A DNA stretch of 64,000 nucleotides. It comes from Patescibacteria group bacterium. Lineage in GTDB: Bacteria; Patescibacteriota; 4484-211. Shown here piece by piece: positions 30,689 to 63,753 of the stretch (within the stretch, counting starts at the first letter, position 1; each line of letters begins with the position of its first letter). The stretch spans positions 1,632-65,631 of the forward strand of contig JAHJGY010000070.1 of the NCBI GenBank assembly GCA_018824115.1. Direction: 5' to 3'. A model generated the notes under the pieces. That model did no database searches. It was not told the origin of the DNA and saw only the letters and a program-made list of their open reading frames with translations. Position numbers and translations under genes: made by a program.

Positions 30689-30737
30689 TTATTCTCACCA
30701 TCCCGCAGAAGGCATATGTGGTAAAATTTATTTGACT

Positions 30738-31355
30738 ATGGAATTAAAAGATTTTCTTGCCCCTTTCTGCAAGCGTTGGAAGCCCGTTCTTCTTGTTCCA
30801 TTTACCTTGGGAGTGCTTGCCTATATATGCAGTAGCTATCTTCCACTAAAGTACCAGGCTTCGGCAACAATTTATGTTCAGAGAACTCCCGAGCAAAGTC
30901 AGGGAGAGTTCTTTACCTACGAAGGATACTATGCTTATAAGGCGGCTCAAGAGTATGCCGATACGATTACCGGATTTTTAGAGAGTCCAGATATTATCCG
31001 GCAGGCGGGGTTGATAGTTTGGGAATCAGTTTCTGAAGATAGGCAGCGGCAATTGCAAAATTCTGTCAGTGCGACGAAAGTTGCTCCACAACTTGTTCAG
31101 GTGGTAGTTACGTTTGGCAGTACCGACGAGGCAAAACAGATATTAACTGCCTTGGTCCAAGCTGTTGATACAAGTACGAAATCACTGAACCAGCTTGGTG
31201 GTGGTGAGACTAAGATTGGCTTGTTAACTGAGGGGCTATTGACGGAAACGGTTAGGCCACGGCGATTGTTAAATGCATTAGTTGCTGCCGGTGCCGGAAT
31301 TATTATAGTTTGTGTTTGGGTTTGGCTGAGAGAGTATGTTATTTCGGCTAACTGA
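30738..31355 (+). CDS. Wzz-like polysaccharide chain-length-determinant family protein (N- and C-terminal TM)
   Basis: Topology: TM, about 150 aa extracytoplasmic segment, then TM; start placed at the internal ATG (MELKDF) to avoid overlap with rnhA. Confidence 0.45.
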   Translation: MELKDFLAPFCKRWKPVLLVPFTLGVLAYICSSYLPLKYQASATIYVQRTPEQSQGEFFTYEGYYAYKAAQEYADTITGFLESPDIIRQAGLIVWESVSEDRQRQLQNSVSATKVAPQLVQVVVTFGSTDEAKQILTALVQAVDTSTKSLNQLGGGETKIGLLTEGLLTETVRPRRLLNALVAAGAGIIIVCVWVWLREYVISAN

Positions 31356-31421
31356 AAACTCTTCACTACGCCCTGTCTGACGGGGTTACGCTCGAGTTTT
31401 CTGAGCCTCATTAAACTGCCC

Positions 31422-34400
31422 ATGGAAAATACGATAAGGTCCGAAATAAATTTTTCTACTGCAAGTGTTTTAATTGCCGGAGTTGGTAATTTTGTTGGCT
31501 ATCATTTAGCCGATTCGTTGTTAACCTCTGATGTCCGCGTTATTGGAATTGATAATTTTATTACTGGATCCGAAGGTCTAGTACAGGGTCTCTGCCGCAA
31601 TCCGAGATTCAGTTTTTTCCAAGCAGATATTAACCAGCCCCTCCCCGCCGCCTTGTATAAAGAGGAGGTATCTCATGTTATCCATTTAGCCAACATTGAA
31701 ACTTGTACGAGCCAGGGACATCTACAATTGAATGAGTTGCTTTCCAATTCGTTTGGCGTTAAGAATCTACTTGACTTTAGTATAGATAAAAAGGCGCCGT
31801 TTGTGTTTACATCTACGATTGATATTTACCAGGGTTTAGCATCTTCGACCAGCTTAAGCCACTACTTTAACGGTGAGGGTATGGCGAATAAGCTCACGTA
31901 CGCGGAAGCGAAGCGTTATGCCGAGAGTCTGTGTCAGGAATATGTCCAATTGTATGGTGCTGATGTTCGTGTTGCCCGATTATCCGAAGTTTACGGTCCA
32001 TGGATGAGGCTGGATCGAGGGACTGCTTTTAGTGAACTTTTGCGCCCGGCACTGTTAGGAGAGGACTTAGTGGTTTTGACGAGTGGTACCTCAAATTATT
32101 ACCTTACTTATGTTAGCGATGTTGTGTATGGATTGGTGAAGTTAATTTTTGCTCAGTCGGATTTGGTAAAGCAAGGAATTTTCTATTTTGTTAACCCTCA
32201 GGAGGTTAACCTGGTAGACATTGCACATACTCTTGTGCGTCTATCTGCTAAGGGCAAGGTACGGATTGAGGGGATAGTGAAGGAAGGGATTGCTTTCCCT
32301 TCGTCGCGAGTGGATTTGTCGCGTAGTCAACACGATTTATACTGGGGTGCGAAGGTAAATCTTGAGGAGGGGCTTGGATTGACCTTGGCTTATTTCCGTG
32401 ATTATCCAGATTTACGGTCGGTCGATAGTTTTTCTGTGCCCCAGAAGATGGCGGCCAGTAGTTCGACCGAAACCCAAAGGGATTATATGCAGTACCAGGC
32501 GGCTAAAGAAGTAGTAGAAGATAGACTTGAACAGCCCGAGATACAGCCTAGTGATGTAGGAGGGGCATTACCGCAACCGCCAGTTAAGGACAGGATTATG
32601 TTTGGCCTAAAGTCGATGATTGAGAAGGAGCGTACGGATGTTGATGATGATAGTAAAACATCTGTGCCGGGTACGGAAAAGGAAGCGGGAAAAGATAAGG
32701 GGGCGCGGGGATGGCTTGCTTTGAAGCGTCAGGAAGAAGTTGTTCCGGGGAGTGGTTCTTCTCTGGATGTGCCGCAGGAAAGCCTAAGCAGTGTTCATAT
32801 ATCGTATCGCAAGAAAAAATGGAAGGGCATAGCCCTTGTTGTTAGCGCGATTCTAATTCTATTCAGTTTCGTGCTGCTACCCTTAATTAAACCATTTTTC
32901 TGGGGCTGGCAGAGTTTGCGGGAAGTAAGAGCGTTACAGCAATCACTTCTGGAAGGAAATCTTGAAGTGAGTGCAGGGCGGTTAGGTGTTTTACAGAAGG
33001 ACATTGCCCTTTTTGATCGGAGTCTTTCGAGTGTCGAATGGTTTTGTCGTCTAATGGGTAAACAGCCAATCTGTGAGTCGTTACACAAATTACTGTCGGT
33101 TGCATCTTTCGCTGGTGAAGGCGGAGATGTGTTGATCCAGGCCCTGCAGGAAGGAGAGTTACTATTCGCAGCAATCCAGTCAGCGTCGCCAGCATTGGGA
33201 GGGGAAGAATCGGCGATTTCAGAGAAAGTACAGTCTTCGACCAAAAAAATATTGGTCGATTTTGAATCTGCGCAAAAGCGGTTTTCGCTGGCAAGGGCGG
33301 AGCTGAGTTCAGTGGATGCTGTAGTGCTTCCATCTAGCCTTAGTGGATATAAGATAAGGGGGGAAGAAATGCTTACAGAAATAAGTAGCTATTTGTCTCA
33401 GGCAGAGGCATTGTTCGAATACTTGCCTCAATTGTTAGGGATTCCGCAACAACAAAGTTATTTTGTTTTGCTTCAAAACAGTAGTGAACTGCGAGCCACA
33501 GGGGGTTTTATTGGTAGTTACGCCACTTTTACCTTTGAACAGGGCAAGTTGATGGAATTAAAGGTGGATGATATTTATAATCCGGATGGTCAGTTGCAAG
33601 ATACAGAGCCGGCCCCGAAGCCGATAAAGGATAATTTTAAAGTGGAGAATCTTGGTATTCGTGATGCTAATTGGTGGCCACATTTTCCAACTAGTGCGCA
33701 GAAAATAATTGATCTCTATCAGCAAGCGGTTGGAGAAGAAGTAGATTTGGTAGTCGGTCTTAATCTGTACACGATTGGCCAGTTGCTAGATAAAGTTGGT
33801 CCGGTTAACTTGGCTGATTACCAAGAGACTATTTCGGGGGAAAACTTGTTCGAAAAGGCAGAACTATATAGTGAGGTTGGGTTTCAGCCCGGCTCCGATC
33901 AGAAAAAAAGCTTTCTGACAGCTTTATCCCAGGACTTAATAGCCAAACTCCTTCAGGCAGACAATACCCAATGTGCTTCCGCGCTGGGGGTATTGTTGGA
34001 GAATCTTGAGGACGGGAGTGTGATGTTGTATTCCTCTTCCGAGGATTTACAAACAGTGTTTAATCAATTGGGTTGGAGTGGGCGTATAGCGGCGGTTGAA
34101 AAAGAGGAAGACTATATTGCCGTAGTGGATTCCAACGTTGGCGGTAATAAGGCAAACTTTTGGATTGAGCGGTCGACAGATTATCGTTTAGACGTGGATC
34201 GTGATGGTAATCTGACGGGCGTTTTGACTATTTCCTGGGTGCATCGGGGTGACTCTGGTACCTGGCCGGGCGGGGATTACAAAAATTATCTACGAGTGTA
34301 TGTGCCAGAGTACGCGGTGTTTATTGAAGCAGCCGGTTTTGCTGGTGAAGTTGAGAAATATACGGAGTTCAATAAGAAGGTGTTTGGAGCTATAGTAGAT

Positions 34401-34664
34401 GTCCCGGTTAACTCAACTAAAGAGGTTATTTTAAAGTACAGTTTACCCTGGGAAATTGGATTTTCGAAGAAAACGGGTTACCGGCTTACAGTTAAAAATC
34501 AGCCAGGCATTATGGGTGAATCGTTTAATTTAATCATAAACTTGCCCGTATTTCTTAAAGGGAAGAGTGTGAATGGAGGGTTAATTGATGCAGATAATAA
34601 TCGTGTTGTCTGGGAAACAATACTAGACGGAACAAAAACTATGGGGTTGGAAGTGGATCGGTGA
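31422..34664 (+). CDS. Fusion protein: N-terminal NAD-dependent epimerase/dehydratase (SDR) + TM + C-terminal DUF4012-like extracytoplasmic domain
   Basis: Rossmann GVGNFVG motif with SDR-like catalytic YxxxK (YAEAK); mid-protein TM segment IALVVSAILILFSFVLLPLI; long C-terminal domain. Confidence 0.65.
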   Translation: MENTIRSEINFSTASVLIAGVGNFVGYHLADSLLTSDVRVIGIDNFITGSEGLVQGLCRNPRFSFFQADINQPLPAALYKEEVSHVIHLANIETCTSQGHLQLNELLSNSFGVKNLLDFSIDKKAPFVFTSTIDIYQGLASSTSLSHYFNGEGMANKLTYAEAKRYAESLCQEYVQLYGADVRVARLSEVYGPWMRLDRGTAFSELLRPALLGEDLVVLTSGTSNYYLTYVSDVVYGLVKLIFAQSDLVKQGIFYFVNPQEVNLVDIAHTLVRLSAKGKVRIEGIVKEGIAFPSSRVDLSRSQHDLYWGAKVNLEEGLGLTLAYFRDYPDLRSVDSFSVPQKMAASSSTETQRDYMQYQAAKEVVEDRLEQPEIQPSDVGGALPQPPVKDRIMFGLKSMIEKERTDVDDDSKTSVPGTEKEAGKDKGARGWLALKRQEEVVPGSGSSLDVPQESLSSVHISYRKKKWKGIALVVSAILILFSFVLLPLIKPFFWGWQSLREVRALQQSLLEGNLEVSAGRLGVLQKDIALFDRSLSSVEWFCRLMGKQPICESLHKLLSVASFAGEGGDVLIQALQEGELLFAAIQSASPALGGEESAISEKVQSSTKKILVDFESAQKRFSLARAELSSVDAVVLPSSLSGYKIRGEEMLTEISSYLSQAEALFEYLPQLLGIPQQQSYFVLLQNSSELRATGGFIGSYATFTFEQGKLMELKVDDIYNPDGQLQDTEPAPKPIKDNFKVENLGIRDANWWPHFPTSAQKIIDLYQQAVGEEVDLVVGLNLYTIGQLLDKVGPVNLADYQETISGENLFEKAELYSEVGFQPGSDQKKSFLTALSQDLIAKLLQADNTQCASALGVLLENLEDGSVMLYSSSEDLQTVFNQLGWSGRIAAVEKEEDYIAVVDSNVGGNKANFWIERSTDYRLDVDRDGNLTGVLTISWVHRGDSGTWPGGDYKNYLRVYVPEYAVFIEAAGFAGEVEKYTEFNKKVFGAIVDVPVNSTKEVILKYSLPWEIGFSKKTGYRLTVKNQPGIMGESFNLIINLPVFLKGKSVNGGLIDADNNRVVWETILDGTKTMGLEVDR

Positions 34665-34755
34665 GGATCGGTGTCTTTAGCCCCGAACAGTTACTACATA
34701 ACCTACCTGTCTTTTCCCGTTGGTATTTTGAGGTACAATACTTAGGAGCGAGCTT

Positions 34756-35862
34756 ATGAATTATCTTAAAGAATATCCAATAAAGGGCAAGGTGTTGGAG
34801 TTTCCGGTCTTTTTCCCCGATGCCACAAGGGCAGTGATCAGAAGTATAGACACGCATGATTTAAGGCGGACAGGCGTTGAAGGGGTGGTGGTGAATACCT
34901 ATCATCTAATGGCTCAGCCGGGAACGACAGTAATAGAACAACTGGGTGGGGTAAAGTTGTTAATGAATTGGGATGGCTGGGTAGCTTCGGATTCTGGTGG
35001 TTTCCAAATAATGTCGTTAATTCAGCGGAACAGGTCGATAGGAAGCATTACTGACAGAGGGGTTGTTTTTCATCGGGGGACAAGGAAGAAAAAGAAATAT
35101 GTATTTACGCCGGAAAAATCGATTGAAGTGCAGTTTAGTTTAGGAGCAGATATCTTGGTATGTCTGGATGATTTCACGGACCCGCGTGCTAAAGAAGACG
35201 AGATAGAGATTAGTGTAAAACGAACAATCGAGTGGGGGAAAAGATGTAAAGATGAGTTTTTAAAGCAAGTGGCGCAGCGGAAACTGGATAATGCCAGTCG
35301 CCCGATACTGATTGGCGTAATCCAAGGTGGTGATAACAAGGCAATGCGGGAAAAGTGTGCACGGGGATTATTGGAGATAGGATTTGACGGTTACGGGTTC
35401 GGCGGCTGGCCGCTAGATAAAGATGGTAATTTGGATGTGGAGATAGCCAGTTTTACGGCCTCGTTGTCACCAGAAAACCTGCCCCGTTTTGCTCTGGGTG
35501 TTGGTAGCCCGCAGAATATACTGGAGTGCTTTCGTTTTGGCTACAATATTTTTGATTGCGTTTTACCTACCCGCGATGCGCGACACCGGCGCTTGTACGT
35601 TTTTTCTGAGGATCCGGAAAAAGTTGATATTTTGAGCCTAAAGCGGCTTCATAGCTACCTGTATATTCTTCGTGAAAAGTATGTTCGTGACAATAGTCCG
35701 ATTAGTGAGCATTGTGATTGTTATACTTGCCAAAATTATTCTCGGGCTTACCTACATCACTTGTTCCGTATTGAAGATTCACTGTCCTGGAGGTTGGCCA
35801 CTATTCATAACCTACGTATGTATACGAGGTTAATTGAGATGCTGAGAGGGATGATTACCTAG
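34756..35862 (+). CDS. tgt: Queuine tRNA-ribosyltransferase
   Basis: The first of the paired catalytic aspartates (D-x-x-...-D) is seen here as DSGGFQ (DSGGFQIMS); Zn site CDCYTC...H. Confidence 0.85.
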   Translation: MNYLKEYPIKGKVLEFPVFFPDATRAVIRSIDTHDLRRTGVEGVVVNTYHLMAQPGTTVIEQLGGVKLLMNWDGWVASDSGGFQIMSLIQRNRSIGSITDRGVVFHRGTRKKKKYVFTPEKSIEVQFSLGADILVCLDDFTDPRAKEDEIEISVKRTIEWGKRCKDEFLKQVAQRKLDNASRPILIGVIQGGDNKAMREKCARGLLEIGFDGYGFGGWPLDKDGNLDVEIASFTASLSPENLPRFALGVGSPQNILECFRFGYNIFDCVLPTRDARHRRLYVFSEDPEKVDILSLKRLHSYLYILREKYVRDNSPISEHCDCYTCQNYSRAYLHHLFRIEDSLSWRLATIHNLRMYTRLIEMLRGMIT

Positions 35863-36988
35863 TGCGTCCTTCAATAAGATCGGGCTGGAAAATTTTTTGG
35901 CGCGTGTAGTCTATCCCGCGGTAAAAGTAATAGAGTGGAGATAAAGGCAGATCAAGACAACCGATATAGCTAACTCGCTTTCCACTAAAACCTTTCTTAA
36001 ATAATGTGTGTCCGCTCCAAGCGTGTTTGGGGTTGTCGGTGGGAGCAATTCCCCAGAGGTCATATTCTTTAACATTCTCTCGTTTTAAAGATTGCATGAT
36101 TTCCCATTGTAGAATATAGGGGGCATATAAGTTCTTTGTTTCTGGGCTTATATCAGAAGCTCCCCACAGGTAACAACCCATATTTTGTGTTTTAAGAATA
36201 GCGGCGGCGGCAATAACCCTAGAGCCGGCAGGAAAGCTATCAACAAGCACTGAGGGGAGTTCGCTCTGTTGTCTTTTGATTTGCGGGGGGAGGAAAGAGA
36301 GATAAAGTTCAGCTTGCTTACTTGGCGCCATCAGTTGGAAGACTTTTTCGAATTGTCTCCAAGATCTCGGCGAGAAACCTTTTTCTGCCGTTTGTTGATA
36401 TTTCTCGTAGAATATTTTCCATAGTTCTTTGTTTTTTCCTTGATCTTTGATTACCCTTACACCTTCACGGGCGGCGCGGCGGATGCCATAACGGGTATCT
36501 TTATCCATATGGTAAATAAGGTCTTCTAGTTTTTGGGTTAAATCGATTATTGAAGTATGGGAAGGTTGAATAGATTTAAAATAGGGATGTAGTGACAGGG
36601 GGCCGGTAACTGATAACTGGTAACTGGAATCAATTTGGGGTTCTATGCGGCAGAATAATGTTCGCGAAGAAGAATATTTTTCTTTGATATATTCGAGTAA
36701 GTTTTTTAGGATGGTGGGTGCTTTTGGATCTTGCCAATTTAGTACTGGCCCTCGGGGACAGTAAAGCATTGAGAGTCCGAATGGTAAAGTTCGTTTGAGA
36801 ATTTGTGCTCCAGCGACGAGTTTTTTACGGTAAAAGACTCCTAAGTGAATGGGCTGCCAAACAACTGATGTTTTAACTTCTCCCCATTCCCAGAGTTGTA
36901 AGGGACTGTTGTAAGGATGGTGACTAATAAATTTATTCCACGCGATTTTGGAGTTAGTTGAGAGTGATTTAACTTGGTAAATTGACAT
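35855..36988 (-). CDS. FemAB-family peptidoglycan interpeptide-bridge aminoacyltransferase
   Basis: 377 aa; GNAT-like duplicated fold characteristic of FemX/FemAB; overlaps tgt by 8 nt. Confidence 0.65.
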   Translation of the reverse strand: MSIYQVKSLSTNSKIAWNKFISHHPYNSPLQLWEWGEVKTSVVWQPIHLGVFYRKKLVAGAQILKRTLPFGLSMLYCPRGPVLNWQDPKAPTILKNLLEYIKEKYSSSRTLFCRIEPQIDSSYQLSVTGPLSLHPYFKSIQPSHTSIIDLTQKLEDLIYHMDKDTRYGIRRAAREGVRVIKDQGKNKELWKIFYEKYQQTAEKGFSPRSWRQFEKVFQLMAPSKQAELYLSFLPPQIKRQQSELPSVLVDSFPAGSRVIAAAAILKTQNMGCYLWGASDISPETKNLYAPYILQWEIMQSLKRENVKEYDLWGIAPTDNPKHAWSGHTLFKKGFSGKRVSYIGCLDLPLSPLYYFYRGIDYTRQKIFQPDLIEGRTR

Positions 36989-37123
36989 TAGTGCTCGAGA
37001 GATTACTATATTATATCAGCCGGGCCATTAACTGCTTCTCGGGGTTTGAAAAAACCCTCTCTTCTGTGGTAGAATATGAATGGTTTAGGGCTTTGTTGGG
37101 CTTAAATATTGGAAAAGTGGGTT

Positions 37124-37546
37124 TGTTGAGGTGGGAGAGAGGTCTATCGCCCCGACCTTTGGGTCGTGGGAGGAAAGTCCAGACTACATAAGGCAGGGTG
37201 GGCGCTGCAAGGCGTTCGTGGTAACACCGAGTGGGCTAATCCCGAAAGGGAAAAGTCATCTTGAGGGAAACAACCTTCAGGAAGAGCCACAGTGACGTAA
37301 CTAATTTCTAAGTCCTTGTGATATGAAATTAGAGTGAAACGTGCAATCCTCCCTGTAGCAACTTCCGGATGGCACGAGCTCTCGACTTTAAGTCTGCCAG
37401 TCGGCAGACAGGTCGGAGGAGAGGTCGCCTGCCGAGTGCCGAAGACGAAGGCATTAGATAGATGATAGACAGTCTCGACTTTAGGCCTGCCCGTCGGCAG
37501 GCAGGTCGGGATAAACAGAATCTGGCTTACTCCTCTCCCATCATAA
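37124..37546 (+). ncRNA. rnpB: RNase P RNA, bacterial type A
   Basis: P4 5' strand GGGAGGAAAGTCCAGAC...ATAAGGCAGGGTG; 3' conserved ACAGAATCTGGCTTA; P1 pairing between tgaggtgggagagagg and ctcctctcccatca. Confidence 0.8.
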
Positions 37547-37692
37547 CAAGCCCATATTGATTCGAACTCGTAGGGAAATGAAGGAGCTGTTCCTCCAGAT
37601 GGCCTCTTGCTAGTTAATGAAGGGACCGTCCTCCCACAGAGCTATCTTGACCTAATACAGAGCCGTACTAGGGGTGGCCCTTAACGAAAAAA

Positions 37693-37707
37693 TGTTACAA
37701 TAGAAGC
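37693..37707 (+). promoter_or_regulatory. Extended -10 promoter (TGt-TACAAT) ending 6 nt before the ATG, giving a probably leaderless mRNA
   Basis: aaTGtTACAATagaagcATG; no SD sequence. Confidence 0.35.
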
Positions 37708-38196
37708 ATGTCAGTGCACTTCTACCCAAAACTTTTCGACTCCAAACAATTCGAAGATCAAAAAGAGCGTAAAGACAATTTATATGAGCTGGTTATGGAA
37801 TGTACCGACGAGAATTTTGATTTTAATATTGATGACTCGTTCACCGCATTAGCCTACTATCCATCAGCAGACGTACCAGCAAATTTTGCTACTGTTTTGT
37901 CTGAGCAATTAGAACTAGATCTCATTGATCTTGATGATGATTCCCAGCTTGAAGAAGTAAGTAAAACGATCGAAATACTTAACAAAATCGGGTCTGTGGA
38001 AAAGACAAACTTAGATTGGGAAACTTATGAACCATATATTGGATTTATAACACTAGAAGAAAGCATTACCCTCAAGGGTTTTCTCGAGAAATATAATTTT
38101 GATGATGACGTAATTAACAATTATAAACATTTTATGTTGGAGATTTTACGTAAAGCTATTGAAAAGAATAAGGGGATTATTATTCTAGCATTTTAA
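37708..38196 (+). CDS. Hypothetical highly acidic protein (162 aa, D/E-rich)
   Basis: ORF; about a quarter of residues are Asp/Glu; no recognisable family. Confidence 0.5.
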   Translation: MSVHFYPKLFDSKQFEDQKERKDNLYELVMECTDENFDFNIDDSFTALAYYPSADVPANFATVLSEQLELDLIDLDDDSQLEEVSKTIEILNKIGSVEKTNLDWETYEPYIGFITLEESITLKGFLEKYNFDDDVINNYKHFMLEILRKAIEKNKGIIILAF

Positions 38197-38352
38197 TCCA
38201 GCTTCCTATACTTTTTACTTTGTAGAGTACACCCTATCTAAGTTTTCTAAGGACGGATGTTCTAAAAACCCATTAATGAAAGGACGATCCTTCCGTCCTC
38301 CGTTCCCCCATTCAACGCGGCGAGCCCAGGATTTGCCGTCACATGGCCCTTG

Positions 38353-40611
38353 TCAAACACTAGGTGTTTGGTTAACAAATTCTTTGAGGTATCTACCTGT
38401 ATGGGAGTTGTTACTATTACAAATATCCTCTGGTGTTCCTTGCGCAACAATTCGACCACCTTTATCTCCACCCCCTGGCCCTAAGTCAATAATCCAGTCC
38501 GCTTGCCGGATTACGTCTAAGTTGTGTTCAACAATAAGTACTGTGTTGCCATTATCCACTAACTTATTTAATAGCCTCATTAATTTATCGAGATCTGCGA
38601 AGTGGAGACCCGAAGTTGGTTCATCTAGAATATAAAACTCATTTTCCTTCTGAAGCCTACTTGCAAGTTTAAGTCTTTGAGACTCGCCACCCGAAAGGGT
38701 GTCTAAGGTTTGTCCCATTTCAATATAATCGAGCCCAACATTAATTAATAAGTCCATTGCGTCTATAATTTTTTTGTCTTCAAAAAATCCCTTTACTTCC
38801 CGTGCCGTCATTTCTAAGATTTGTGCGATGTTTCTACCCTTATGTCTGTATCTGAGAACTTTTTCTTTATATCTAGTGCCGCCACACTTGTCACAGCGTA
38901 TCTTCACATTACCTAAAAAGTTCATATCCATGTTAATGTAGCCAACACCCTTGCAATTCGCACATCCACCCTTTGAGTTAAAACTAAATAAACCTACGCT
39001 CATATTCGTACTTTTGGCAAATATTTTTCTTATTTCATCAAATGCACCAATATATGTGGCAATGCAACCCCTTTTGGTGTTGCCAATTTGCTTTTGATCC
39101 ATAGCCGTTATCCTTTCACCGTGTTGAGCAATAATTTCTTCAACCAAAGAGCTTTTACCCGACCCTGATACTCCAGTTAGTGCTACCAATACTCCGCAGG
39201 GGATTTTCACATTCAGATTTTTCAGGTTGTGCTTTGTTGCGTTGACAATTTTTAAATGATCTATGGGTGTTCTAACTTTATCTTTTAAATCCTTTCTTTC
39301 ACTATTTACTAAATACTTTGCTGTTACGGATTTAGGGTTGTTGACAATCTCATTTAGTACTCCTTGAGCAATAACCCTTCCCCCCTCCTTGCCGCCCCCG
39401 GGTCCAATTTCAACAATGTGATCCGAGCTTTTTATTATTGCCTCATCATGTTCAACCACCAATATCGTGTTGCTGTTCTTGCATAAACTTTTTAAATTAT
39501 TAACCACCCCAGCGACATCTTTGGGGTGAAGGCCGGCCGTAGGTTCATCCAACACATAAATAGTTTCAATTAAATCACAACCTAACTGTCTTGCCATTTT
39601 TACTCGCTGTGCTTCTCCTCCCGATAAAGTATCTGCCGATCGGTTAAGAGATAAATATCCGACACCTGCGTTAACAAGATGTTCTAATTGCTCTGTTAAA
39701 CGAGGCTTTATTACCTCGGCATGGGGATGACCTACATTCTTTATAAATTCTAAGCAGTCAGTTAATGGCATATTTGCAACCTCACCAATACTTTTGCCAT
39801 TTACCCTTACCGATAATGCTTGGGCGTTGAGCTTTCCACCCTTACAAGCGGGGCAGTCAATAAAGTCAAAATATTTTAAATCACTTTTGGAGGGGCCCCG
39901 ATGCACCTTAGTGTTTCTGTGCATTATCCGATAAACAATTCCCTGGTATGTCCACTTATTTACTATAAATGCGCCCTGGCTATCCAACAAAACCGGTTTG
40001 GCATTTAACAACTTATCAAGTTCTTCTTGGCAATAATCTTTTATCTTTTTATCCATGTCAAAGTAACCACTTGATCCGATGATGCTCCACTGTCGTCCGC
40101 CTACGTACCACTCACCAGGTTTCAATGCTCCTTCATTTAAACTCTTATTTACATCAAGTATCTTATCTAGATTTACTTCAACAGATCTTCCTAATCCCTT
40201 ACATTGTGGACATGCTCCAAATGGATGATTAAAGGAGAAGTAGGTTGAATCCATCGTAGGTAAACCCACCCTAGAGAAGAGTAGCCTCAAATAGTTATAA
40301 CTTTCGGTCAATGTCCCAACTGTTGATCGGGGATTACTGCGAACTCTGGCTTGGCTAATTTTTACAGTTGATGAAATTCCAGATATTGAATCGATATCTG
40401 GCTTGTTATTTTTGCTTAGATATCTTCTGGCATAAGTACTTAATGACTCGAAATACTGCCTTTCGCTTTCACGGGCAATAATGTCGAAGGCTATTGTTGA
40501 CTTGCCGGAACCCGACACGCCCACAAAACAGACAACCCGGTTTCTAGGGATAACGACATCAATGTTTTTCAGGTTGTTCTCTCTGGCCCCTTTAATATTA
40601 ATAGTGTTCAT
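38353..40611 (-). CDS. UvrA-like tandem ABC ATPase lacking the UvrB-binding domain (UvrA class II/III; DrrC/UvrA2-like)
   Basis: Two Walker A motifs (GVSGSGKST, GVSGSGKSS), two LSGGE signatures, and Zn modules (FSFNHPFGACPQCKGLG, CANCKGVG, CDKCGG). The ~140-aa segment found in canonical UvrA between RLLF(A/S)RVG and the FSFN zinc module is absent; 752 aa. Confidence 0.85.
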   Translation of the reverse strand: MNTINIKGARENNLKNIDVVIPRNRVVCFVGVSGSGKSTIAFDIIARESERQYFESLSTYARRYLSKNNKPDIDSISGISSTVKISQARVRSNPRSTVGTLTESYNYLRLLFSRVGLPTMDSTYFSFNHPFGACPQCKGLGRSVEVNLDKILDVNKSLNEGALKPGEWYVGGRQWSIIGSSGYFDMDKKIKDYCQEELDKLLNAKPVLLDSQGAFIVNKWTYQGIVYRIMHRNTKVHRGPSKSDLKYFDFIDCPACKGGKLNAQALSVRVNGKSIGEVANMPLTDCLEFIKNVGHPHAEVIKPRLTEQLEHLVNAGVGYLSLNRSADTLSGGEAQRVKMARQLGCDLIETIYVLDEPTAGLHPKDVAGVVNNLKSLCKNSNTILVVEHDEAIIKSSDHIVEIGPGGGKEGGRVIAQGVLNEIVNNPKSVTAKYLVNSERKDLKDKVRTPIDHLKIVNATKHNLKNLNVKIPCGVLVALTGVSGSGKSSLVEEIIAQHGERITAMDQKQIGNTKRGCIATYIGAFDEIRKIFAKSTNMSVGLFSFNSKGGCANCKGVGYINMDMNFLGNVKIRCDKCGGTRYKEKVLRYRHKGRNIAQILEMTAREVKGFFEDKKIIDAMDLLINVGLDYIEMGQTLDTLSGGESQRLKLASRLQKENEFYILDEPTSGLHFADLDKLMRLLNKLVDNGNTVLIVEHNLDVIRQADWIIDLGPGGGDKGGRIVAQGTPEDICNSNNSHTGRYLKEFVNQTPSV

Positions 40612-40675
40612 AAGATTGACATTTCTCTACCACGGGACTATAATAAGCTATTACGTTACGTCATAGTCAAGTATC
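40612..40675. promoter_or_regulatory. Overlapping divergent promoters: plus-strand TTGACA-17-TATAAT for the MerR gene; minus-strand TTGACT-19-TATTAT (MerR-type long spacer) for the UvrA-like gene, with an imperfect dyad CTATTACGT-T-ACGTCATAG in the spacer
   Basis: Coordinates read directly: TTGACA 40616-40621, TATAAT 40639-40644; minus-strand -10 at 40640-40645, -35 at 40665-40670, spacer 40646-40664 (19 nt). Confidence 0.5.
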
Positions 40676-41473
40676 ATGAATAATTACTTAACAGCGGGTG
40701 AATTAGCCAAGCTTGCAAGTACCACTAAGCGAACTATTCTCTTTTATGATGAGAAAAACATTCTTGAACCCGTGGAAGTTAATAATAAGGGTTATAGATA
40801 TTATTTAGAAGATCAGGTGCTTGACTACCAAAAAATACTTCTCCTTACTACCCTAGGTGTTTCATTGGATGAAATTAGGCTTCATCTCAAAAATAAGGGT
40901 AATCTGACTCAACTCTTTAACGAAAAAAAATCTCAAATAAGAAATCAAATAAAGAAGCTTGAATTTAATTTAGATAGTCTCGAGAAATTCTCAAACAACA
41001 TAAATAACAATGGGACAATGGTCAACCCGGAAATAAAGACAATTGAACCATTTGATGTTTATTACATTGAAAAAATCGGACCCTACGTTAAAATCGCGGA
41101 GTACTGCAAAGAGTTTATCGAGATGTTTGATAATAGGGGGAAAGAGTTTACAACTCTAGCCATCTTTGAGAACCCTACCTATCAACCCAAGAAAAGCAAG
41201 ATTAAAATTGGAGCGCTTGTAAAAAAGGACATGAAGATAGGTGAGAAACATAAAGATACTGTTAAACGCATGACTTTTAGCCCCGGAAAAGTTATAACCC
41301 ACACCTACAATGGTTCAGGAAGTTTACTTTCCTTATTCTGGAAAGAACTTGAAAAATACTGCATGATAAAAAAAATAAAAATTAGAAAAGATGTTCCTGA
41401 TTTTGAAATATACCGCAAAGTCAGCGAAGATCCAGTGGAGCAGTTTTTTGAAATTTATCTTCCTATCCGTTAA
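40676..41473 (+). CDS. MerR-family transcriptional regulator with C-terminal GyrI-like effector-binding domain (BmrR-like)
   Basis: N-terminal MerR HTH (LTAGELAKLASTTKRTILFYDEKNIL), coiled-coil linker, and a C-terminal GyrI-like domain ending ...PDFEIYRKV...EIYLPI. Confidence 0.8.
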   Translation: MNNYLTAGELAKLASTTKRTILFYDEKNILEPVEVNNKGYRYYLEDQVLDYQKILLLTTLGVSLDEIRLHLKNKGNLTQLFNEKKSQIRNQIKKLEFNLDSLEKFSNNINNNGTMVNPEIKTIEPFDVYYIEKIGPYVKIAEYCKEFIEMFDNRGKEFTTLAIFENPTYQPKKSKIKIGALVKKDMKIGEKHKDTVKRMTFSPGKVITHTYNGSGSLLSLFWKELEKYCMIKKIKIRKDVPDFEIYRKVSEDPVEQFFEIYLPIR

Positions 41474-41634
41474 TTTATTTTTATGGCCCGCCCGCCTTCA
41501 TGTAAATCCGAGACTTGCCAGTTCCCAAAGTCGTCTTGCGAACTGGCCAAGTAAGATTGGCTTCCTTATTGCACCAATTTAAATTAGTGAAAATAGGACT
41601 TTCCAGGTCATCGATGCTAAAGTATACTGTTGTT

Positions 41635-42369
41635 ATGCAGACTAGGAGGGCTCCAGAATCAAACCCGCCAGAAACCGAGTCCTGGGGTGAGATACAGCAA
41701 CGGGCGGAGTCGCAATTGGAGGACCTTGGTTTGGGTTGGGAAGACCTGATAGGTAATGTATTAGATGTTGGTTCGGGAGAGTCTTTTATTACAAAGGCGG
41801 CCCGGGAACAAGGTATAGATACCGAGGTTACATCCCTTGATATTGATCCACGGCGAGGTGAATGGTCTCCATTGCCAGGCGAGATACGCCAACGATCTGT
41901 ACAAGCCGACGCACTTGAGATGCCCTTTGCCGATGAGTCATTTGATCTTGTTGTGGCACGAGGATCAGTTGGATTTCTAGGTATACCCGAAGCAATACGT
42001 GTCCTACGCCCAGGTGGTGAGTTGCGTATCTATCCACTAAGCACAGGAGTAGTGGAACAGTGGATGATGTTTTATTATTTGCATGAGGTGCAAGGTGAAT
42101 CTCAAGAAGATGTAATGGATAAGATGCAAGCTCTTAGTTCTTCGTACAATGAGGAGTTGGGGGCTTACTCTTTAGAATATACGGCCTTGCGTGATGAGGC
42201 GCTCGAAAGTCTGTCGAAAGATCAAAAATTAGAAGTAATACAGATGGTAGTAGATACGTTATCGGACAGATATGGTCTTTCATTAACTCATATTGTCCGT
42301 GAACCGGATGCCAGAGAGCCAAAGGCAATACTATGTTATACCAAGCCTGATCTGTTCCGTGAATTTTGA
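41635..42369 (+). CDS. Class I SAM-dependent methyltransferase (Methyltransf_11-like)
   Basis: Motif I VLDVGSGES; ALEMPFADESFDLVV. Start chosen at the ATG 6 nt downstream of a TATACT -10 (leaderless-like). The ORF-track start at 41515 lies inside a hairpin that is probably the MerR-gene terminator. Confidence 0.6.
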   Translation: MQTRRAPESNPPETESWGEIQQRAESQLEDLGLGWEDLIGNVLDVGSGESFITKAAREQGIDTEVTSLDIDPRRGEWSPLPGEIRQRSVQADALEMPFADESFDLVVARGSVGFLGIPEAIRVLRPGGELRIYPLSTGVVEQWMMFYYLHEVQGESQEDVMDKMQALSSSYNEELGAYSLEYTALRDEALESLSKDQKLEVIQMVVDTLSDRYGLSLTHIVREPDAREPKAILCYTKPDLFREF

Positions 42370-42436
42370 GGCGTCTTAAAATGCCGGGTGTTTAAAAACT
42401 GGTTGAATTCGACAGTGTTTTGGTAGAATAATAAAT

Positions 42437-42679
42437 ATGGAGATAGGAAAGATTACAAAGAACTTTGCTGACGACTTTTGTAATTTGGTTTGGAAAAAGC
42501 TCGGCAAGGTAGGAGTAGAAGGAATTGGGATTACCGGCAGTTATGCCCGAGGCGATTATTCAAAAGCTCGTCCAGATATAAACTTCGCGCTTTTCATTGA
42601 TAAGAGTACGCCAGAATTGCTTCTTGAAATTGGGAAAATAACCTCAAGTCTTAATATGAAGTATTCTCTTCAGTTATAG
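42437..42679 (+). pseudogene. Truncated MNT-like nucleotidyltransferase domain (80 aa, DxD to DIN, no HEPN partner); probable gene remnant
   Basis: GITGSYARGDYSKARPDINFALF contains the GS...D-x-D NTase motif with the second Asp replaced. The ORF ends after about 80 aa, against about 100-130 aa for intact MNT. Confidence 0.4.
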
Positions 42680-42786
42680 GGCCAGAATAGATACTTTCGC
42701 GGCGTTGGTGTAAAAGTAGTATTAAGGTGTGAGAATGGGTAAAAGATTGCTTATAAAACGCAATTGGGCTATCATGGACTTATCTC

Positions 42787-44340
42787 ATGTTAGCTAAGAT
42801 ATACTCCGGTACCATACTCGGCCTAGAAGGGAAGCGGGTGGATGTGGAAGTTGACTTAGCCAAGAAAGGATTCCCCTCGTTTAAGATTGTTGGTTTACCC
42901 GATAAGGCGGTGAATGAAGCGCGGGATCGGGTTCGGAGCGCAATAATAAACTCCAAAGCTGATTTCCCTAAATATCGTTTGACTGTGAATTTAGCTCCTG
43001 CTGATTTGCCTAAAGAGGGCAGCGCTTTTGATTTGCCGATTGCACTAGGGATATTAATTGCGTCGGGGCAATTACCGCTTTCCGCCGAGCTTGAAAAGAG
43101 CGTTTTTTGGGGTGAGCTATCTTTAGAAGGCGATTTGCGTTCCATCACCGGAGCCCTTCCGCTTACTCTCTGGGCCAGAGAAGCTGGATTCGAACAGGTG
43201 TTTCTGCCGGCGGTTAATGCTCCAGAAGCAGCGGTAGTTAAAGGGATAAAGGTGATGCCGATAAATTCTCTAAGGGAGTTGTTCTACCACCTTGGAGATG
43301 TGAAGCCGATTGAACCTCACGATCCGGTAGATGTTCAGAGTTTTGCTAACAAATTAAGGGACTCTGAGTTTGACTTGGCAGATATAAGTGGGCAGGAGCA
43401 AGCTAAAAGAGCGTTAATAATTGCTGCCGCGGGTGGGCATAACCTTTTTATGATGGGGCCTCCCGGAGCAGGGAAAACACTACTAGCGCGCGCTTTGCCG
43501 TCAATTCTTCCCTCTTTAACTGAGGAGGAAATGCTAGAGGCAACCCAGATTTATTCGGTATCGGGAAATCTACCCCACGGTGAAGCGCTAATATTACAAA
43601 GACCATTTAGAACTCCACATCATACCACTTCCAGAATTGGTCTTATTGGTGGTGGCAGCCGTCCGAAGCCAGGGGAGATCTCACTGGCCCATCGAGGAGT
43701 GTTATTTCTGGATGAATTCGCTGAGTTCCCACGGCATGTATTGGAGAGTTTAAGGCAGCCGATGGAGGATGGAAAAGTTACTGTAAGCCGTGCGCTCACT
43801 TCGACAACTTTTCCGGCGCAGTTCATGCTGGTAGCAGCGTCTAATCCTTGTTACTGTGGGTATTTAGGGAGTCAGCGGGGCGTTTGTCGATGCACTTCGT
43901 ATCAAGTTGACCGTTATCAAAAGAGAGTTAGTGGCCCAATGCTTGATCGTTTTGATCTTTATCTAACAGTGCCGGAGGTAGAGCGGGAAAAGTTGAGTCA
44001 GGCGTTAACCGAAGGGCGCGGGCGGCAGACGTTGACTTCGGCAGTTGCCAGAGAACAAGTACAGCTGGCGCGTGATTTACAAAAAAAGAGGTTCAGTAAT
44101 GGTCCGAGTTTAGTCTGTAATGCTAATATTGGGCCAAAAGAAATAAGGGTTTATTGTGAACCTGATAATCAGGGGCGCGAATTGTTAAAGCAGGCATATG
44201 CTCGTTTTAGACTAACAGCGCGTGGTTATCACAAGGTTTTAAAAGTAGCACGAACAATCGCGGACCTAAACGGTTCATCGGAAATTGCACCGGAGTGTAT
44301 TAGTGAGGCATTATGTTACCGGCGGAGAGGTTGGGGTTGA
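42787..44340 (+). CDS. comM: YifB/ComM family Mg-chelatase-like AAA+ ATPase
   Basis: N-terminal Lon-like domain, Walker A GPPGAGKT, and the C-terminal Cys cluster CYCGYLGSQRGVCRC. Confidence 0.85.
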   Translation: MLAKIYSGTILGLEGKRVDVEVDLAKKGFPSFKIVGLPDKAVNEARDRVRSAIINSKADFPKYRLTVNLAPADLPKEGSAFDLPIALGILIASGQLPLSAELEKSVFWGELSLEGDLRSITGALPLTLWAREAGFEQVFLPAVNAPEAAVVKGIKVMPINSLRELFYHLGDVKPIEPHDPVDVQSFANKLRDSEFDLADISGQEQAKRALIIAAAGGHNLFMMGPPGAGKTLLARALPSILPSLTEEEMLEATQIYSVSGNLPHGEALILQRPFRTPHHTTSRIGLIGGGSRPKPGEISLAHRGVLFLDEFAEFPRHVLESLRQPMEDGKVTVSRALTSTTFPAQFMLVAASNPCYCGYLGSQRGVCRCTSYQVDRYQKRVSGPMLDRFDLYLTVPEVEREKLSQALTEGRGRQTLTSAVAREQVQLARDLQKKRFSNGPSLVCNANIGPKEIRVYCEPDNQGRELLKQAYARFRLTARGYHKVLKVARTIADLNGSSEIAPECISEALCYRRRGWG

Positions 44341-50569: not shown

Positions 50570-50667
50570 TCAATGAGGCTCAAAAATTGCGAGTGTAGCG
50601 AAGCAATTTTAGTTAGCCGAATTAATCCGCCTAAATATGCCGTAGGCATTTTTGGCGTGATGATGTC

Positions 50668-50696
50668 ATTATACAAAGGGAATCGCAATGTTACAA
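50668..50696 (-). promoter_or_regulatory. alaS promoter (minus strand TTGTAA-17-TATAAT), ~95 nt leader
   Basis: Read on the reverse complement: ttgtaacattgcgattccctttgtataat. Confidence 0.4.
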
Positions 50697-50879
50697 GGAG
50701 AAAATAATGAAAAAGGTGGTATTTGGGGTTTTGGGAAGTGCGAAATGCGGGGCTAGGTGTCGGAAAATCGCTGATGCTGGCGCCCGCCTATTTTTGATTC
50801 TTTAAAAAGAATTTTGAGGCGGGCCGCTTGCTTTGCAGGAAAAGTAGTGCGGTAGAAGTTATTTTTCTGCAAAGCTTAA

Positions 50880-51590
50880 GTGAGTGGGATTAGTTGTGAT
50901 CCCAGCTCCTTTTTTCAAGCTTGCCTGCCAAGTCGGCAGGCTTGCCCGCCGGATTGGCGGGCAATGCTCGGTACCGGTTGGTGCCGAGGTTTGTTCTCCC
51001 ACCGCAGTATTGATGGGAGAAGAGTTGATAAGGAAGTTCATGAGGTCGGAGCTTTGACATGCCCACCTCGAGGGTTCCTTAGCCCTTTACGCCAGTCCGT
51101 CACCACAGGCCTTTTAAGGCGTTACCTGCGGTCCCAGGTCCTTGGGGAAGTCAGGTCCATTCCGATAATTATCGGAATCCCGCCCCGTTAGGGCGAGTCT
51201 TCCCAGAACAGCATTCCTGAGTTTGTCGTGGTTCCCCGATCTACAATCGAGGGCTGTTCCCACACCACTATTGCTAACGCCTCCTTTTGGACTTTAGGAG
51301 TACGCCCTGCGGCTAAGTGATGCCGTCACATTTTGCTCTCACGAGCGAGCTGTGGCCAGCTCTTGGTTCTGGAGATGTTGTCCCTTACGGAGCCTATTGG
51401 CTCCGTCCTTCACTACAAACAAGCCCAAAGGACTTGCTGGAAGGAAGGGATTCCCTTAGCTCCGAAAGGGGCTGCTACCCGGGCCCACCATGGGCTCGAC
51501 AGGATGCAGTCTTTTTGAGATTTTGGCTTGCGTTCATCCCGATTCGCGGGATACGCCTTACCCCGAATCCCACGGGGCTACAAATGTTCT
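50880..51590. ncRNA. Candidate large structured non-coding RNA (~700 nt, GC-rich, hairpin-dense, no ORF); identity unknown
   Basis: A series of perfect hairpins (gcctgcc-aagtc-ggcaggc; ttgcccgcc-gga-ttggcgggcaa; ttccgataat/tatcggaa; tctccca...tgggaga; ggagcc-tatt-ggctcc); only short GC-biased ORFs without an SD sequence. Confidence 0.3.
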
Positions 51591-51885
51591 AAAAGAAACC
51601 GGAGAATATGACTAGCCATATTCCGGCGATCGCCAGGATGCATCCGGCGAGTATGAGTACCCTCCGGAGTTTACGTCCCTGGCGCAGATGGTGGAATCCT
51701 CGATCCTCAAATCCTAGAGAGATTCCCTCATCGATCGCTGCCTTTAGGCCTAGGACTAGTCCTAAGCCTAACAGGGCGAGCCCGCCACCGGCGGCGATAC
51801 CGAGTTCTTGGTTGTCGGTGACAGCTGTTATCAGCGCCCCGGCGATTAGGCCGAGGATCAGCCAAAGAGCCGCTAGCTTAGACAT
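51589..51885 (-). CDS. Small membrane protein (2-3 TM, Gly/Ala/Leu-rich), GC-rich
   Basis: ORF; start trimmed to the internal M (MSKLAALWLILG) to give an 8-nt overlap with the upstream CSD gene. Confidence 0.45.
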   Translation of the reverse strand: MSKLAALWLILGLIAGALITAVTDNQELGIAAGGGLALLGLGLVLGLKAAIDEGISLGFEDRGFHHLRQGRKLRRVLILAGCILAIAGIWLVIFSGFF

Positions 51886-52558
51886 CGTTACCTCCCTTGA
51901 AAAGCACTTCGAGTGCCCGCTCGACCCAGAGGTCGATGTTGCGGACATCTAGCCTTTCTTTCCCCCCTAGAATTACTGGGGGATAGGGTTTTCCGTCATC
52001 GACCACTCGCCACGGGGCGGGGTACTCGGCGGGGTGGAAGAACCAGTAAGCGGCGCCGTTTTCCAGGACGCGCTCATCAGTTCTCCAGATTTCCCCAGAC
52101 TTGGCCGTCCAAGCCGTGCTTCCGACGGGGTATGGCTTGGCTGCCACCCAATGATCTCCTTTGCGGAAAATGAGATAGTCGTCATTTTCCATCATAAGCT
52201 CCCACCCGCGGTGAGCAAAAGCTGCCTTGATACCTTTGACAATTTCTTCTTCTCCGAGAGCGAGGGCGATTTCACTAGCTCTGTGGGGTGGGACCTCGAT
52301 AGTTCCGTTTGCATCACGGGGGAGGTTTCTCGGCCTCACATTGTGAGCAACGGCCCCATTCCGGCCATGGCCAACTGTGAAGGTCACTTGCGTGCCCTTC
52401 AGGTTATCTTCGGCGACAATTGCTCGCACACCACCGATGTGGTGGTGGTTTACGAAGATATCGGGCCCATCATCTTGGCTGATGAACCCGTAACCGGATT
52501 TGCCCCGGCGGTCGGGGCGGTCCCTTGTGAAAAAAACCTTAATGGTTCCGGTAGGCAT
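51878..52558 (-). CDS. Cold-shock-domain fusion protein (N-terminal CSD + ~160-aa uncharacterised C-terminal domain), GC-rich
   Basis: GTIKVFFTRDRPDRRGKSGYGFISQDDGPDIFVNHHHI resembles the CspA RNP1/RNP2 fold (KGFGFI...VFVH). Confidence 0.65.
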   Translation of the reverse strand: MPTGTIKVFFTRDRPDRRGKSGYGFISQDDGPDIFVNHHHIGGVRAIVAEDNLKGTQVTFTVGHGRNGAVAHNVRPRNLPRDANGTIEVPPHRASEIALALGEEEIVKGIKAAFAHRGWELMMENDDYLIFRKGDHWVAAKPYPVGSTAWTAKSGEIWRTDERVLENGAAYWFFHPAEYPAPWRVVDDGKPYPPVILGGKERLDVRNIDLWVERALEVLFKGGNDV

Positions 52559-53153
52559 CTTGCACCTCCTTTTTAGGTGTGGCGGCGGTTCCGAGCTGCC
52601 AACTTGGAAGATGCCAACGCCGCGATTGGTTTTCCCTGCGCAAGGCAGATAAGTGCAGAGAAAACGTTAACCAGTAAAAACTAAGGACTTATCGTCCACC
52701 TCCTTTCCCTGCCTCTGGCAGGACTAAAAAAAACAAATACGCCCCACGATTGGGGAGTAAAAGAAAAGCAATGTCAAATGTCAAAACGGCATTACTTCTC
52801 ATCTACTCCTCAATACTAGAGGGTATACGCAAGAAGGGGGGCTGTTCTTTGTTGATGGTATTAACGTGCAAAGCTCCACGTAACTACCTAAAGTATAGCA
52901 TAAAACTATCGGATTGCAAGTTGAATAAGCTTATAGGGGGCTGATGTGGAGGCGATTAGTTAGTAGGGGCGATTTGCTTTCACCCTGCGTAAAGGTCAGT
53001 GAGGGGACTTTTTATGATACGGCGCGGTATAAATTCCGCTACTACACCAACTGAATTGGGTATGTCTAAAGAGTTCTATCCGACTGTTTTTTCTATAAAT
53101 CCTTTAATTAGAGCGGTTTTCTCGGGGCGGGTAGTAGCTAAGGGTGCTAGTTC

Positions 53154-63444: not shown

Positions 63445-63753
63445 ATGGCAGTCTCGGTGCTTTTCAGTACGGTAGGGCACCTTGATGAGGGTCTTTTGGG
63501 GGCCGTAGAGATCAAGCTCTATAGCTGGGGTGTCCCTTTTGGCCCTGAAATGGATAAGGCCATGCGGATCGTGCGCGAGCACGTCGCGACCTGTAAATTG
63601 GTCGTCACCGTCCATGTGGGCGGCGAGGTCCCGCAGTCGCAGTATGACCAAGTGTCATCGATCACGGACCGCGTGACCGTCTACCACATGTTAGGCGGGG
63701 ATCTCTGGTTCGTGAGTCTCGCATGTGATGAGGCGTTTTTGCCCGAGGACTGA
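63445..63753 (+). CDS. Hypothetical small protein (102 aa), GC-rich
   Basis: ORF preceded by AAGGAGG at the correct spacing; no family recognised. Confidence 0.5.
   Translation: MAVSVLFSTVGHLDEGLLGAVEIKLYSWGVPFGPEMDKAMRIVREHVATCKLVVTVHVGGEVPQSQYDQVSSITDRVTVYHMLGGDLWFVSLACDEAFLPED

Follow-up and report, generated by a model that had tools for sequence, protein, structure and literature searches.

How did five genes come to lie between comM and the RNase P RNA gene, rnpB, in the genome of an uncultured Patescibacteria group bacterium, and do they share a history? The window analysed is a stretch of 64,000 nucleotides (GenBank assembly GCA_018824115.1, contig JAHJGY010000070.1, positions 1,632 to 65,631 of the forward strand), in which five open reading frames (ORFs) are flanked by rnpB (37131-37545) and comM (42787-44340). 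A first-pass annotation of the letters regarded the five as a single AT-rich patch, acquired horizontally and now partly decayed, with a theme of drug sensing and resistance. Its list of five genes is borne out by the ORFs and by Pfam, NCBIfam and Rfam matches. The history proposed here is a different one. The interval is probably a variable slot of a lineage related to CPR3, with mosaic contents of separate histories, and two of its genes, uvrA2 and merR, are a self-contained cassette conserved on at least seven distinct contigs of the Candidate Phyla Radiation (CPR), that of the window included. The features concerned are as follows (aa, amino acids).

37131-37545, forward strand: rnpB, bacterial type A RNase P RNA (RF00010), the left landmark
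37708-38196, forward strand: acidic 162-aa protein of a rare family, convergent with uvrA2 and outside the cassette
38353-40611, reverse strand: uvrA2, apparently intact, encoding a 752-aa UvrA of class II by its domain make-up (TIGR00630, 775.7 bits)
40676-41473, forward strand: merR-type regulator, 265 aa (PF13411 and PF06445)
41635-42369, forward strand: class I S-adenosylmethionine-dependent methyltransferase (PF08241, 48.3 bits)
42437-42679, forward strand: 80-aa ORF, a 5' nucleotidyltransferase fragment of approximately codons 1-78, with a weak NTP_transf_2 match
42787-44340, forward strand: comM (yifB), Mg-chelatase-like AAA ATPase (TIGR00368, 571.4 bits), the right landmark

The merR-uvrA2 cassette

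What marks the two genes as a unit? Six distinct other CPR contexts were compared (L166/L167, L168, L169, L174, L175/L176 and L177). In the first five, merR and uvrA2 are divergent and 63-86 bp apart; in L177 the gene upstream of uvrA2 is cut by the contig end. The regulator is 265 aa long in L166/L167, L168, L174 and L175/L176 and 272 aa long in L169, and the genes that flank the cassette are unrelated in every context examined. Identities of the regulator and of UvrA2 to the window's proteins drop in parallel across loci (76%/81%, 68%/77% and 38%/70%). At the DNA level the window and L166 are 77% identical over 38380-41466, a segment that consists of the two genes and their spacer and ends at the gene ends. 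DNA homology thus covers uvrA2 and merR only, and it is here that the proposal of one acquired and decaying patch of five genes fails.

Genes of the glyoxalase/bleomycin-resistance fold (PF00903) follow uvrA2 directly and in the same orientation in two other CPR genomes:

L166, 5474-6258, same strand as uvrA2: PF00903 gene
L167, 3286-3693, same strand as uvrA2: PF00903 gene
L169, 5888-6286, same strand as uvrA2: PF00903 gene

They may represent an optional third component of the cassette, and their position beside uvrA2 fits a defence against DNA-damaging drugs.

Class II UvrAs are known chiefly as self-resistance genes of antibiotic-producing Streptomyces, and their mechanism is still unsettled. 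Does the uvrA2 product belong with them? In an alignment with Bst UvrA (2r6f), its residues 1-120 correspond to 21-140 and its residues 119-747 to 279-957; about 138 residues of 2r6f (141-278) are therefore unmatched, and UvrA2 lacks zinc module 1 and the UvrB-binding domain. It has the UvrA fold with two complete ABC ATPase modules (Walker A at 31 and 480, LSGGE at 329 and 639, Walker B at 352 and 660) and four CxxC motifs. The CxxC pairs 134/253 and 550/573 correspond to zinc modules 2 and 3, which are retained, as is the insertion domain (residues 119-260 align with that region of 2r6f). Judged by these domains, the product appears to fit the definition of a class II UvrA. DrrC, Ecm16 and the UvrA2 of Deinococcus radiodurans (DrUvrA2) have in common with it the two ABC modules, zinc modules 2 and 3, the insertion domain, a size of about 750 aa, and the loss of the UvrB-binding domain together with zinc module 1. 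Absence of the UvrB-binding domain from these three proteins is a class II feature (PMC10192343), and Ecm16 gives drug resistance without UvrB (PMC10192343; PMC10413001).

There are differences as well. DrrC confers daunorubicin resistance in Streptomyces peucetius and Ecm16 echinomycin resistance, whereas uvrA2 of the window lies outside an antibiotic biosynthetic cluster and, unlike the genes of DrrC, Ecm16 and DrUvrA2, is predicted to be controlled by a dedicated MerR/GyrI sensor. Its clade, moreover, is specific to CPR. Every close UvrA2 homologue (64-81% identity) comes from CPR/Patescibacteria, those with names being labelled Roizman-, Beckwith-, Gottesman- or Amesbacteria, Parcubacteria and Microgenomates, and the best from outside CPR reach at most 45%. 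The phylogenetic incongruence expected of a foreign gene is therefore not seen at the phylum level. Plasmid-borne class II UvrAs, again at most 45% identical, have as neighbours a MarR gene (Clostridium), a YafY gene (Staphylococcus) or no regulator (Listeria). A plasmid or phage origin of the cassette was considered and rejected: no UvrA2 from a plasmid is more than 45% identical, and a search with the regulator at E 1e-10 gave no match on plasmids.

The regulator consists of a MerR helix-turn-helix domain (PF13411, 46.6 bits against a cut-off of 21.6, residues 6-73) and a GyrI-like ligand-binding domain (PF06445, 37.8 bits against a cut-off of 26, residues 117-265). Its top matches in the Protein Data Bank (PDB) are EcmrR (6xl5) of Escherichia coli and BmrR of Bacillus subtilis, which share its architecture and are of similar length (268-284 aa as against 265), although sequence similarity is limited to the helix-turn-helix and coiled coil (E ~5e-7). 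The spacer between the two genes carries three predicted signals.

40640-40670, reverse strand: predicted MerR-dependent uvrA2 promoter, TTGACT (40670-40665), 19 nt, TATTAT (40645-40640)
40667-40647, reverse strand: predicted operator, an imperfect 21-bp dyad ACTATGACGT-A-ACGTAATAGC that spans the -35 element and spacer
40616-40644, forward strand: predicted merR promoter TTGACA-17-TATAAT, whose -10 element overlaps that of uvrA2 back to back

Across loci the dyad has the consensus ACTATAACGT-A-ACGTTATAGT, a perfect 10-1-10 inverted repeat. TTGACT, 19 nt and TAT(A/T)(A/T)T are kept together with the dyad in all seven loci, with 31 invariant columns. The merR promoter is the sole 12/12 match to consensus within 36900-43000, and the TGTCAA element just upstream of uvrA2 is kept in five of the seven loci. 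In the mer operons of Tn21 and Tn501 the regulator's own promoter likewise overlaps divergently. A target promoter with a 19-bp spacer and a dyad operator inside it, predicted here, is shared with BmrR and EcmrR; a spacer of 19-20 bp that contains the operator is the hallmark of MerR-family activation by DNA distortion (PMC8113463). The regulated gene sets the system apart, as it is predicted to encode a DNA-protection ATPase and not an efflux pump. What is new is the MerR/GyrI regulator wired to a class II UvrA; both families are known. No description of this pairing was found in a full-text literature search of incomplete scope, which is absence of evidence only.

The nucleotidyltransferase fragment and the rnpB-comM slot

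Is the 80-aa ORF a decayed toxin-antitoxin component that came in with the other genes? It had been taken for the remnant of an MNT-type nucleotidyltransferase that lacks its HEPN partner. The NTP_transf_2 match is weak (20.8 bits, cut-off 21). In a search with the methyltransferase and the ORF as one joined query, whose matches separated cleanly by length and coverage, the ORF was 58-72% identical to the first ~78 residues of six proteins of 288-295 aa (P0124-P0129). These represent an unannotated nucleotidyltransferase-HEPN-like family of ~290 aa with an invariant 'RPDINF', of which Pfam recognises the N-terminal domain only. The C-terminal half of the full-length proteins is HEPN-like in the predicted structure, at moderate confidence (pLDDT, the predicted local distance difference test, 70); among the Pfam-matched called neighbour genes in L170-L173 there is no HEPN family. 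Pol-beta-type nucleotidyltransferases (the NTP_transf_2 superfamily) usually have a second catalytic Asp where P0124-P0129 have Asn. The motif GSYARGDYSKARPDINF of the ORF is nearly unchanged in the full-length relatives, and the Asn of 'PDIN' is invariant in them, so 'DIN' is the normal state of the family and not decay. With its Asn for the second catalytic Asp ('PDINF') the parent family also differs from ANT-type nucleotidyltransferases (KNTase/ANT(4'), AAD(9), LinB). MNT-HEPN toxin-antitoxin pairs consist of two genes, with an MNT of ~100-140 aa, whereas the relatives of the fragment are single polypeptides of ~290 aa. The gene is thus truly truncated, as had been thought, but it is not a stand-alone MNT that lost a separate partner, since its relatives are fused proteins of 288-295 aa.

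The contig L170 shows where the gene comes from. It has, in order, comM (reverse strand), a 206-aa ORF (forward), a PRTase_3 gene (forward), an intact 295-aa nucleotidyltransferase-HEPN gene (forward, 10001-10888) and rnpB (reverse), all within 2.9 kb; its ComM is 58% identical to that of the window. This arrangement indicates that the linkage of rnpB with comM, and a nucleotidyltransferase gene between them, are old in the lineage. The fragment and L170 are 78% identical in nucleotide sequence over 42458-42668, and homology stops at ~42668; the 3' remainder of the gene was not found by tblastn beside rnpB or elsewhere in the window. Compared with L170, the fragment is inverted and at the comM end of the interval, and the cut coincides with the point at which synteny with a second relative, L007 (CPR3 bacterium 4484_211), resumes. 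Inversion or deletion of the interval would be the simplest account of the cut. The 80-aa ORF is a lineage-native nucleotidyltransferase gene, probably truncated by rearrangement, and not imported toxin-antitoxin debris: an intact gene occupies the same interval in L170, and 'DIN' is ordinary for the family. It is best annotated as a pseudogene fragment, its parent being an unannotated nucleotidyltransferase-HEPN family.

The full-length relatives come from contigs of higher guanine-plus-cytosine (GC) content that share neighbouring genes with the window (L170, 0.469; L171, 0.503). L171, in addition, has an IS3-type transposase pair (HTH_Tnp_1 and rve, 5954-7158) ~3 kb upstream of the intact gene, and it carries Fic and AbiEii. 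The neighbourhood of the nucleotidyltransferase-HEPN gene has the look of a clade-wide hot spot for accessory genes.

Are rnpB and comM adjacent elsewhere? From 21314 to 53814 the window is collinear with L007 except at 30689-42786 and 50570-53150. The former, of 12.1 kb, holds genes for a Wzz-like protein and an epimerase-DUF4012 protein, tgt, femAB, rnpB and the five genes; comM of L007 comes directly after an RNase H gene. L007 alone would suggest a 12.1-kb insertion at 30689-42786, a candidate that was set aside because L170 shows the linkage of rnpB and comM to be older. It is more likely that L007 lost the linkage by rearrangement. In the comparison that had been proposed as a check on the patch, L170 keeps the linkage, with other genes between the two landmarks. 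ComM, used as a query against species-representative genomes and Joint Genome Institute (JGI) metagenomes, has its best matches at 67-68% protein identity, in CPR3-like metagenome-assembled genomes, so that the synteny comparison rests on the distant relatives L007, L008 and L170. The arrangement itself is not an assembly artefact, as assemblies from three samples have it: the window is 99.98% identical to contig JAHIZE010000040.1 of a Patescibacteria metagenome-assembled genome (GCA_018814785.1), and gene order is identical in assemblies from two other samples at 99.97-99.98% nucleotide identity.

The two remaining genes are of rare families unlinked to the cassette. The acidic protein (pI 4.24, Asp/Glu 35 of 162 residues) is without a Pfam or NCBIfam match, and a confident structure model gives weak fold matches only. 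Seven relatives of similar length were found among 1.84 billion representatives; three more matches, to proteins of 615-1278 aa in 6-10 short stretches, are taken to be acidic low-complexity matches. The homologue nearest to it, on a contig of 35.7% GC, has unrelated genes around it and no cassette alongside, and the gene for the acidic protein may have come from a low-GC source. The methyltransferase has 244 aa from the ATG at 41635, or 284 aa if translation starts at the TTG at 41515. It has one real homologue (P0123, 38% identity), which is found among small ORFs and a toxin-antitoxin-like gene pair. PDB matches are weak (E ~3e-4), to small-molecule O-methyltransferases and MitM. The gene is a rare accessory gene with host-like GC.

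The left landmark deserves a comment. Against the full RF00010 model (positions 1-367) rnpB scores 76.8 bits (E 2.8e-23); three long insertions keep it under the gathering score of 100, and a default Rfam scan therefore misses it. The rnpB gene of L170 (10881-11291) is likewise under the gathering score, at 64.3 bits. Default annotation would overlook this essential gene in both CPR genomes, and that CPR rnpB genes score below the Rfam threshold is a lesson for annotation. The gene holds two stable 37-nt hairpin inserts, 89% identical (37380-37416 and 37473-37509), which fold at -22.8 and -27 kcal/mol (z -4.5 and -5.1); no further copies are present in the window, and the hairpin is absent from the L170 orthologue. 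In the rnpB-comM interval no hidden RNA elements were detected at E up to 0.1.

Composition and origin

Was the cassette transferred? GC content of the five genes in order is 0.335 (acidic protein), 0.398 (uvrA2), 0.338 (merR), 0.456 (methyltransferase) and 0.387 (80-aa ORF), compared with 0.447 for the remaining window; the first three are AT-rich and the methyltransferase is different, just as the first-pass annotation had it. The AT-rich block extends over ~37700-41470 with sharp edges. Codon positions 1 and 2 carry most of the drop, second-position GC (GC2) being 0.22 in the acidic protein and 0.25 in the regulator. In a per-gene codon test conditioned on the amino-acid sequence with the host codon table, synonymous third-position GC of the five genes is moderately low (z -2.4, -3.6, -2.1, -1.9 and -0.9 in order), and several native genes reach -2 to -2.8.

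It is the comparison with other genomes that argues for transfer. Core genes of the window are 65.6-72.5% identical in nucleotide sequence to those of L007, the closest relative, and core proteins are at most 75% identical to the nearest relative (RecA, RNase Y), the exception being HU, a short protein, at 84%. Between the cassette and its L166 copy, which is in a 35%-GC genome, DNA identity is 77% (UvrA2 81%, regulator 76% in protein). As the cassette's DNA is closer to a low-GC copy than core genes are to the nearest relative, transfer within CPR is likely. Cassette GC (0.34 and 0.40) is about that of the hosts of the closest copies (0.35-0.39), as against 0.447 in the window and 0.43-0.50 in CPR3-like relatives. 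The difference between cassette and host is here the largest among the seven loci (regulator -10.9 points, UvrA2 -4.9); at the others it is -1.6 to -6.6 for the regulator and -0.9 to +2.7 for UvrA2. Neither the homologous interval of L170 nor the comM region of L007 contains the cassette. Taken together, entry into this genome from a lower-GC CPR lineage is moderately supported, and the cassette was probably transferred within CPR.

Several points weigh against transfer. Synonymous-codon likelihood of all five genes is host-like (z -1.2 to +1.3), and much of the AT-richness is amino-acid composition; the proposed check by sliding GC and codon usage thus upheld a real, sharp-edged AT-rich block but no deviant codon preference. 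The low-GC contigs share with the window no gene by which the relatedness of the hosts could be gauged. Even the nearest relatives are remote, with ComM no more than 68% identical, and their gene order is rearranged. Close homologues are all from CPR, which is compatible with vertical descent and many losses. Mobility genes and flanking repeats are absent around the interval by ORF list, Pfam and repeat search. There is no recombinase or integrase among the window's ORFs, the only tRNA of the window is at 16555 and none is at the interval, and the repeat search with a k-mer check (8-10-mers) gave no repeat linking the interval boundaries and no att-like site. The earlier observation that integrase and flanking direct repeats are lacking therefore stands. 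Integrase-borne islands at small-RNA genes resemble the interval in having accessory genes beside a stable RNA gene and a local shift in composition; they differ from it in that integrase, an att-like direct repeat and a tRNA are missing here, and its genes are of separate origins.

Could the pair instead be an old vertical possession of CPR Microgenomates, repeatedly lost and shuffled by rearrangement? This is rather unlikely, although it carries real weight, and the same holds for its corollary that the AT-richness reflects proteins rich in Lys, Asn and Ile and not a foreign origin. In its favour, the two cassette genes use codons as the host does (z +0.8 and +0.1), the regulator has a GC2 of 0.25-0.30 whatever the host and everywhere falls 2-7 GC points short of its host, close homologues are confined to CPR, and rearrangement is extensive even among the nearest relatives. 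Yet identity to the 35%-GC copy (77% in DNA) is above that of all core genes (at most 72.5%), the GC deficit is about double the usual, and the L175 cassette is 12 points below its host at third positions, as for a module moving between genomes. Acquisition of all five genes as one accessory island, now partly decaying, with the nucleotidyltransferase remnant as toxin-antitoxin cargo, is improbable. The genes are contiguous and none is core, all are below expectation in synonymous-site GC, and the interval exceeds that of L170 by 2.4 kb, all of which would suit an island. Homology to other genomes is, however, limited to uvrA2 and merR, the few homologues of the acidic protein and the methyltransferase are in unrelated contexts, the nucleotidyltransferase is native to the same interval of L170 with relatives on higher-GC contigs (0.469, 0.503), a sharp GC step at 41470 falls within the proposed island, and integrase and repeats are wanting. 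Horizontal acquisition is plausible for the AT-rich part and not for five genes as one patch; for annotation, the rnpB-comM 'patch' is a mosaic and not an island.

Elsewhere in the window, two high-GC genes are strongly deviant on the codon test (z -7.2 and -4.5). One encodes a NosD/beta-helix-like protein of 584 aa (6491-8245, GC 0.567, codon z -7.2, synonymous third-position GC z +9.8) and makes a much better case for a foreign origin than does the rnpB-comM interval. The other encodes a cold-shock-domain protein of 226 aa (51878-52558, codon z -4.5) and is part of a high-GC block (~0.55) at 50570-53150, which is extra with respect to the otherwise collinear L007. A short ORF at 63445-63753, without a Pfam match, has a GC content of 0.573 and a third-position GC of 0.709.

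A predicted drug-responsive switch

What might the cassette do? A theme of drug sensing and resistance, suggested in the first-pass annotation, fits the domains and motifs of the MerR/GyrI and UvrA-paralogue pair. By analogy with BmrR and EcmrR, a dimer of the BmrR/EcmrR-type regulator would bind the 21-bp dyad within the spacer of the uvrA2 promoter, which at 19 bp is over-long, and merR would be transcribed divergently from its own consensus promoter, the -10 elements of the two promoters overlapping. With a planar or cationic xenobiotic in its GyrI-like domain, the regulator would untwist the spacer and turn uvrA2 on. By analogy with DrrC and Ecm16, UvrA2 would recognise drug-loaded DNA and clear or shield the DNA by means of ATP, without excision. 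TipA and AlbA proteins bind or sequester drug, and the GyrI-like domain itself might do so too. The pair may then be a mobile, ligand-inducible anti-genotoxin cassette that circulates in CPR, in which a class II UvrA has replaced the efflux pump as the effector of a BmrR-type regulator; the proposal is tentative and somewhat short of an even chance.

Alternatively, UvrA2 could be a general or back-up damage sensor, or have another role on DNA, with the MerR protein answering a physiological stress, such as oxidation or a metabolite of the cell itself, and not a DNA-binding drug from outside. This is unlikely. Similarity to canonical UvrA lends it some credit and weighs against a class II role: the match of UvrA2 to class I Bst UvrA (651 bits) is stronger than those to Ecm16 (7sh1, 571 bits) and DrUvrA2 (2vf7, 529 bits), a comparison of scores only. 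Class II UvrAs elsewhere adjoin MarR, YafY or no regulator, and no biosynthetic cluster is nearby. Without a UvrB-binding domain, on the other hand, UvrA2 cannot pass lesions to UvrB (PMC10192343); BmrR, EcmrR and BrlR, the GyrI-like MerR regulators with known ligands, sense drug-like aromatic compounds; and bleomycin-resistance-fold genes are co-located in two other genomes. A quite different function would be that of a reduced MADS, a methylation-associated anti-phage system, made up of uvrA2, merR and the methyltransferase. PADLOC profiles mad3 (E 7.8e-79) and mad8 match UvrA2, mad1 the regulator and mad2 the methyltransferase. But a separate MAD6, MAD7 or MAD8 gene is missing here, the mad8 match falls on UvrA2, and the methyltransferase is unlinked to the cassette in every other genome compared. 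In the operon of about eight genes MAD6, MAD7 and MAD8 are mandatory, and MAD1-5 are accessory owing to false positives (10.1101/2023.03.30.534895). The profiles, of generic ABC ATPase, helix-turn-helix and methyltransferase type, were made from HHpred alignments of PDB homologues, which explains the false positives; the one on an ordinary UvrA paralogue is strong (E 7.8e-79). A MADS at 38353-42369 was rejected on the generic matches and the absence of MAD6-8, and there is hardly any chance that it is correct.

What would a drug-responsive merR-uvrA2 cassette mean? To our knowledge CPR/Patescibacteria are ultra-small, host-attached and have almost no other inducible stress regulons. The pair is a compact unit of sensor, promoter and effector that is testable in E. 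coli, and it offers a route to the drugs that trigger class II UvrAs or are countered by them. If the proposed function is true, the ligand of the sensor would reveal natural DNA-binding compounds that class II UvrAs counter outside antibiotic producers. Genome-reduced CPR bacteria, the cassette suggests, spend resources on an inducible defence of their DNA against chemical attack.

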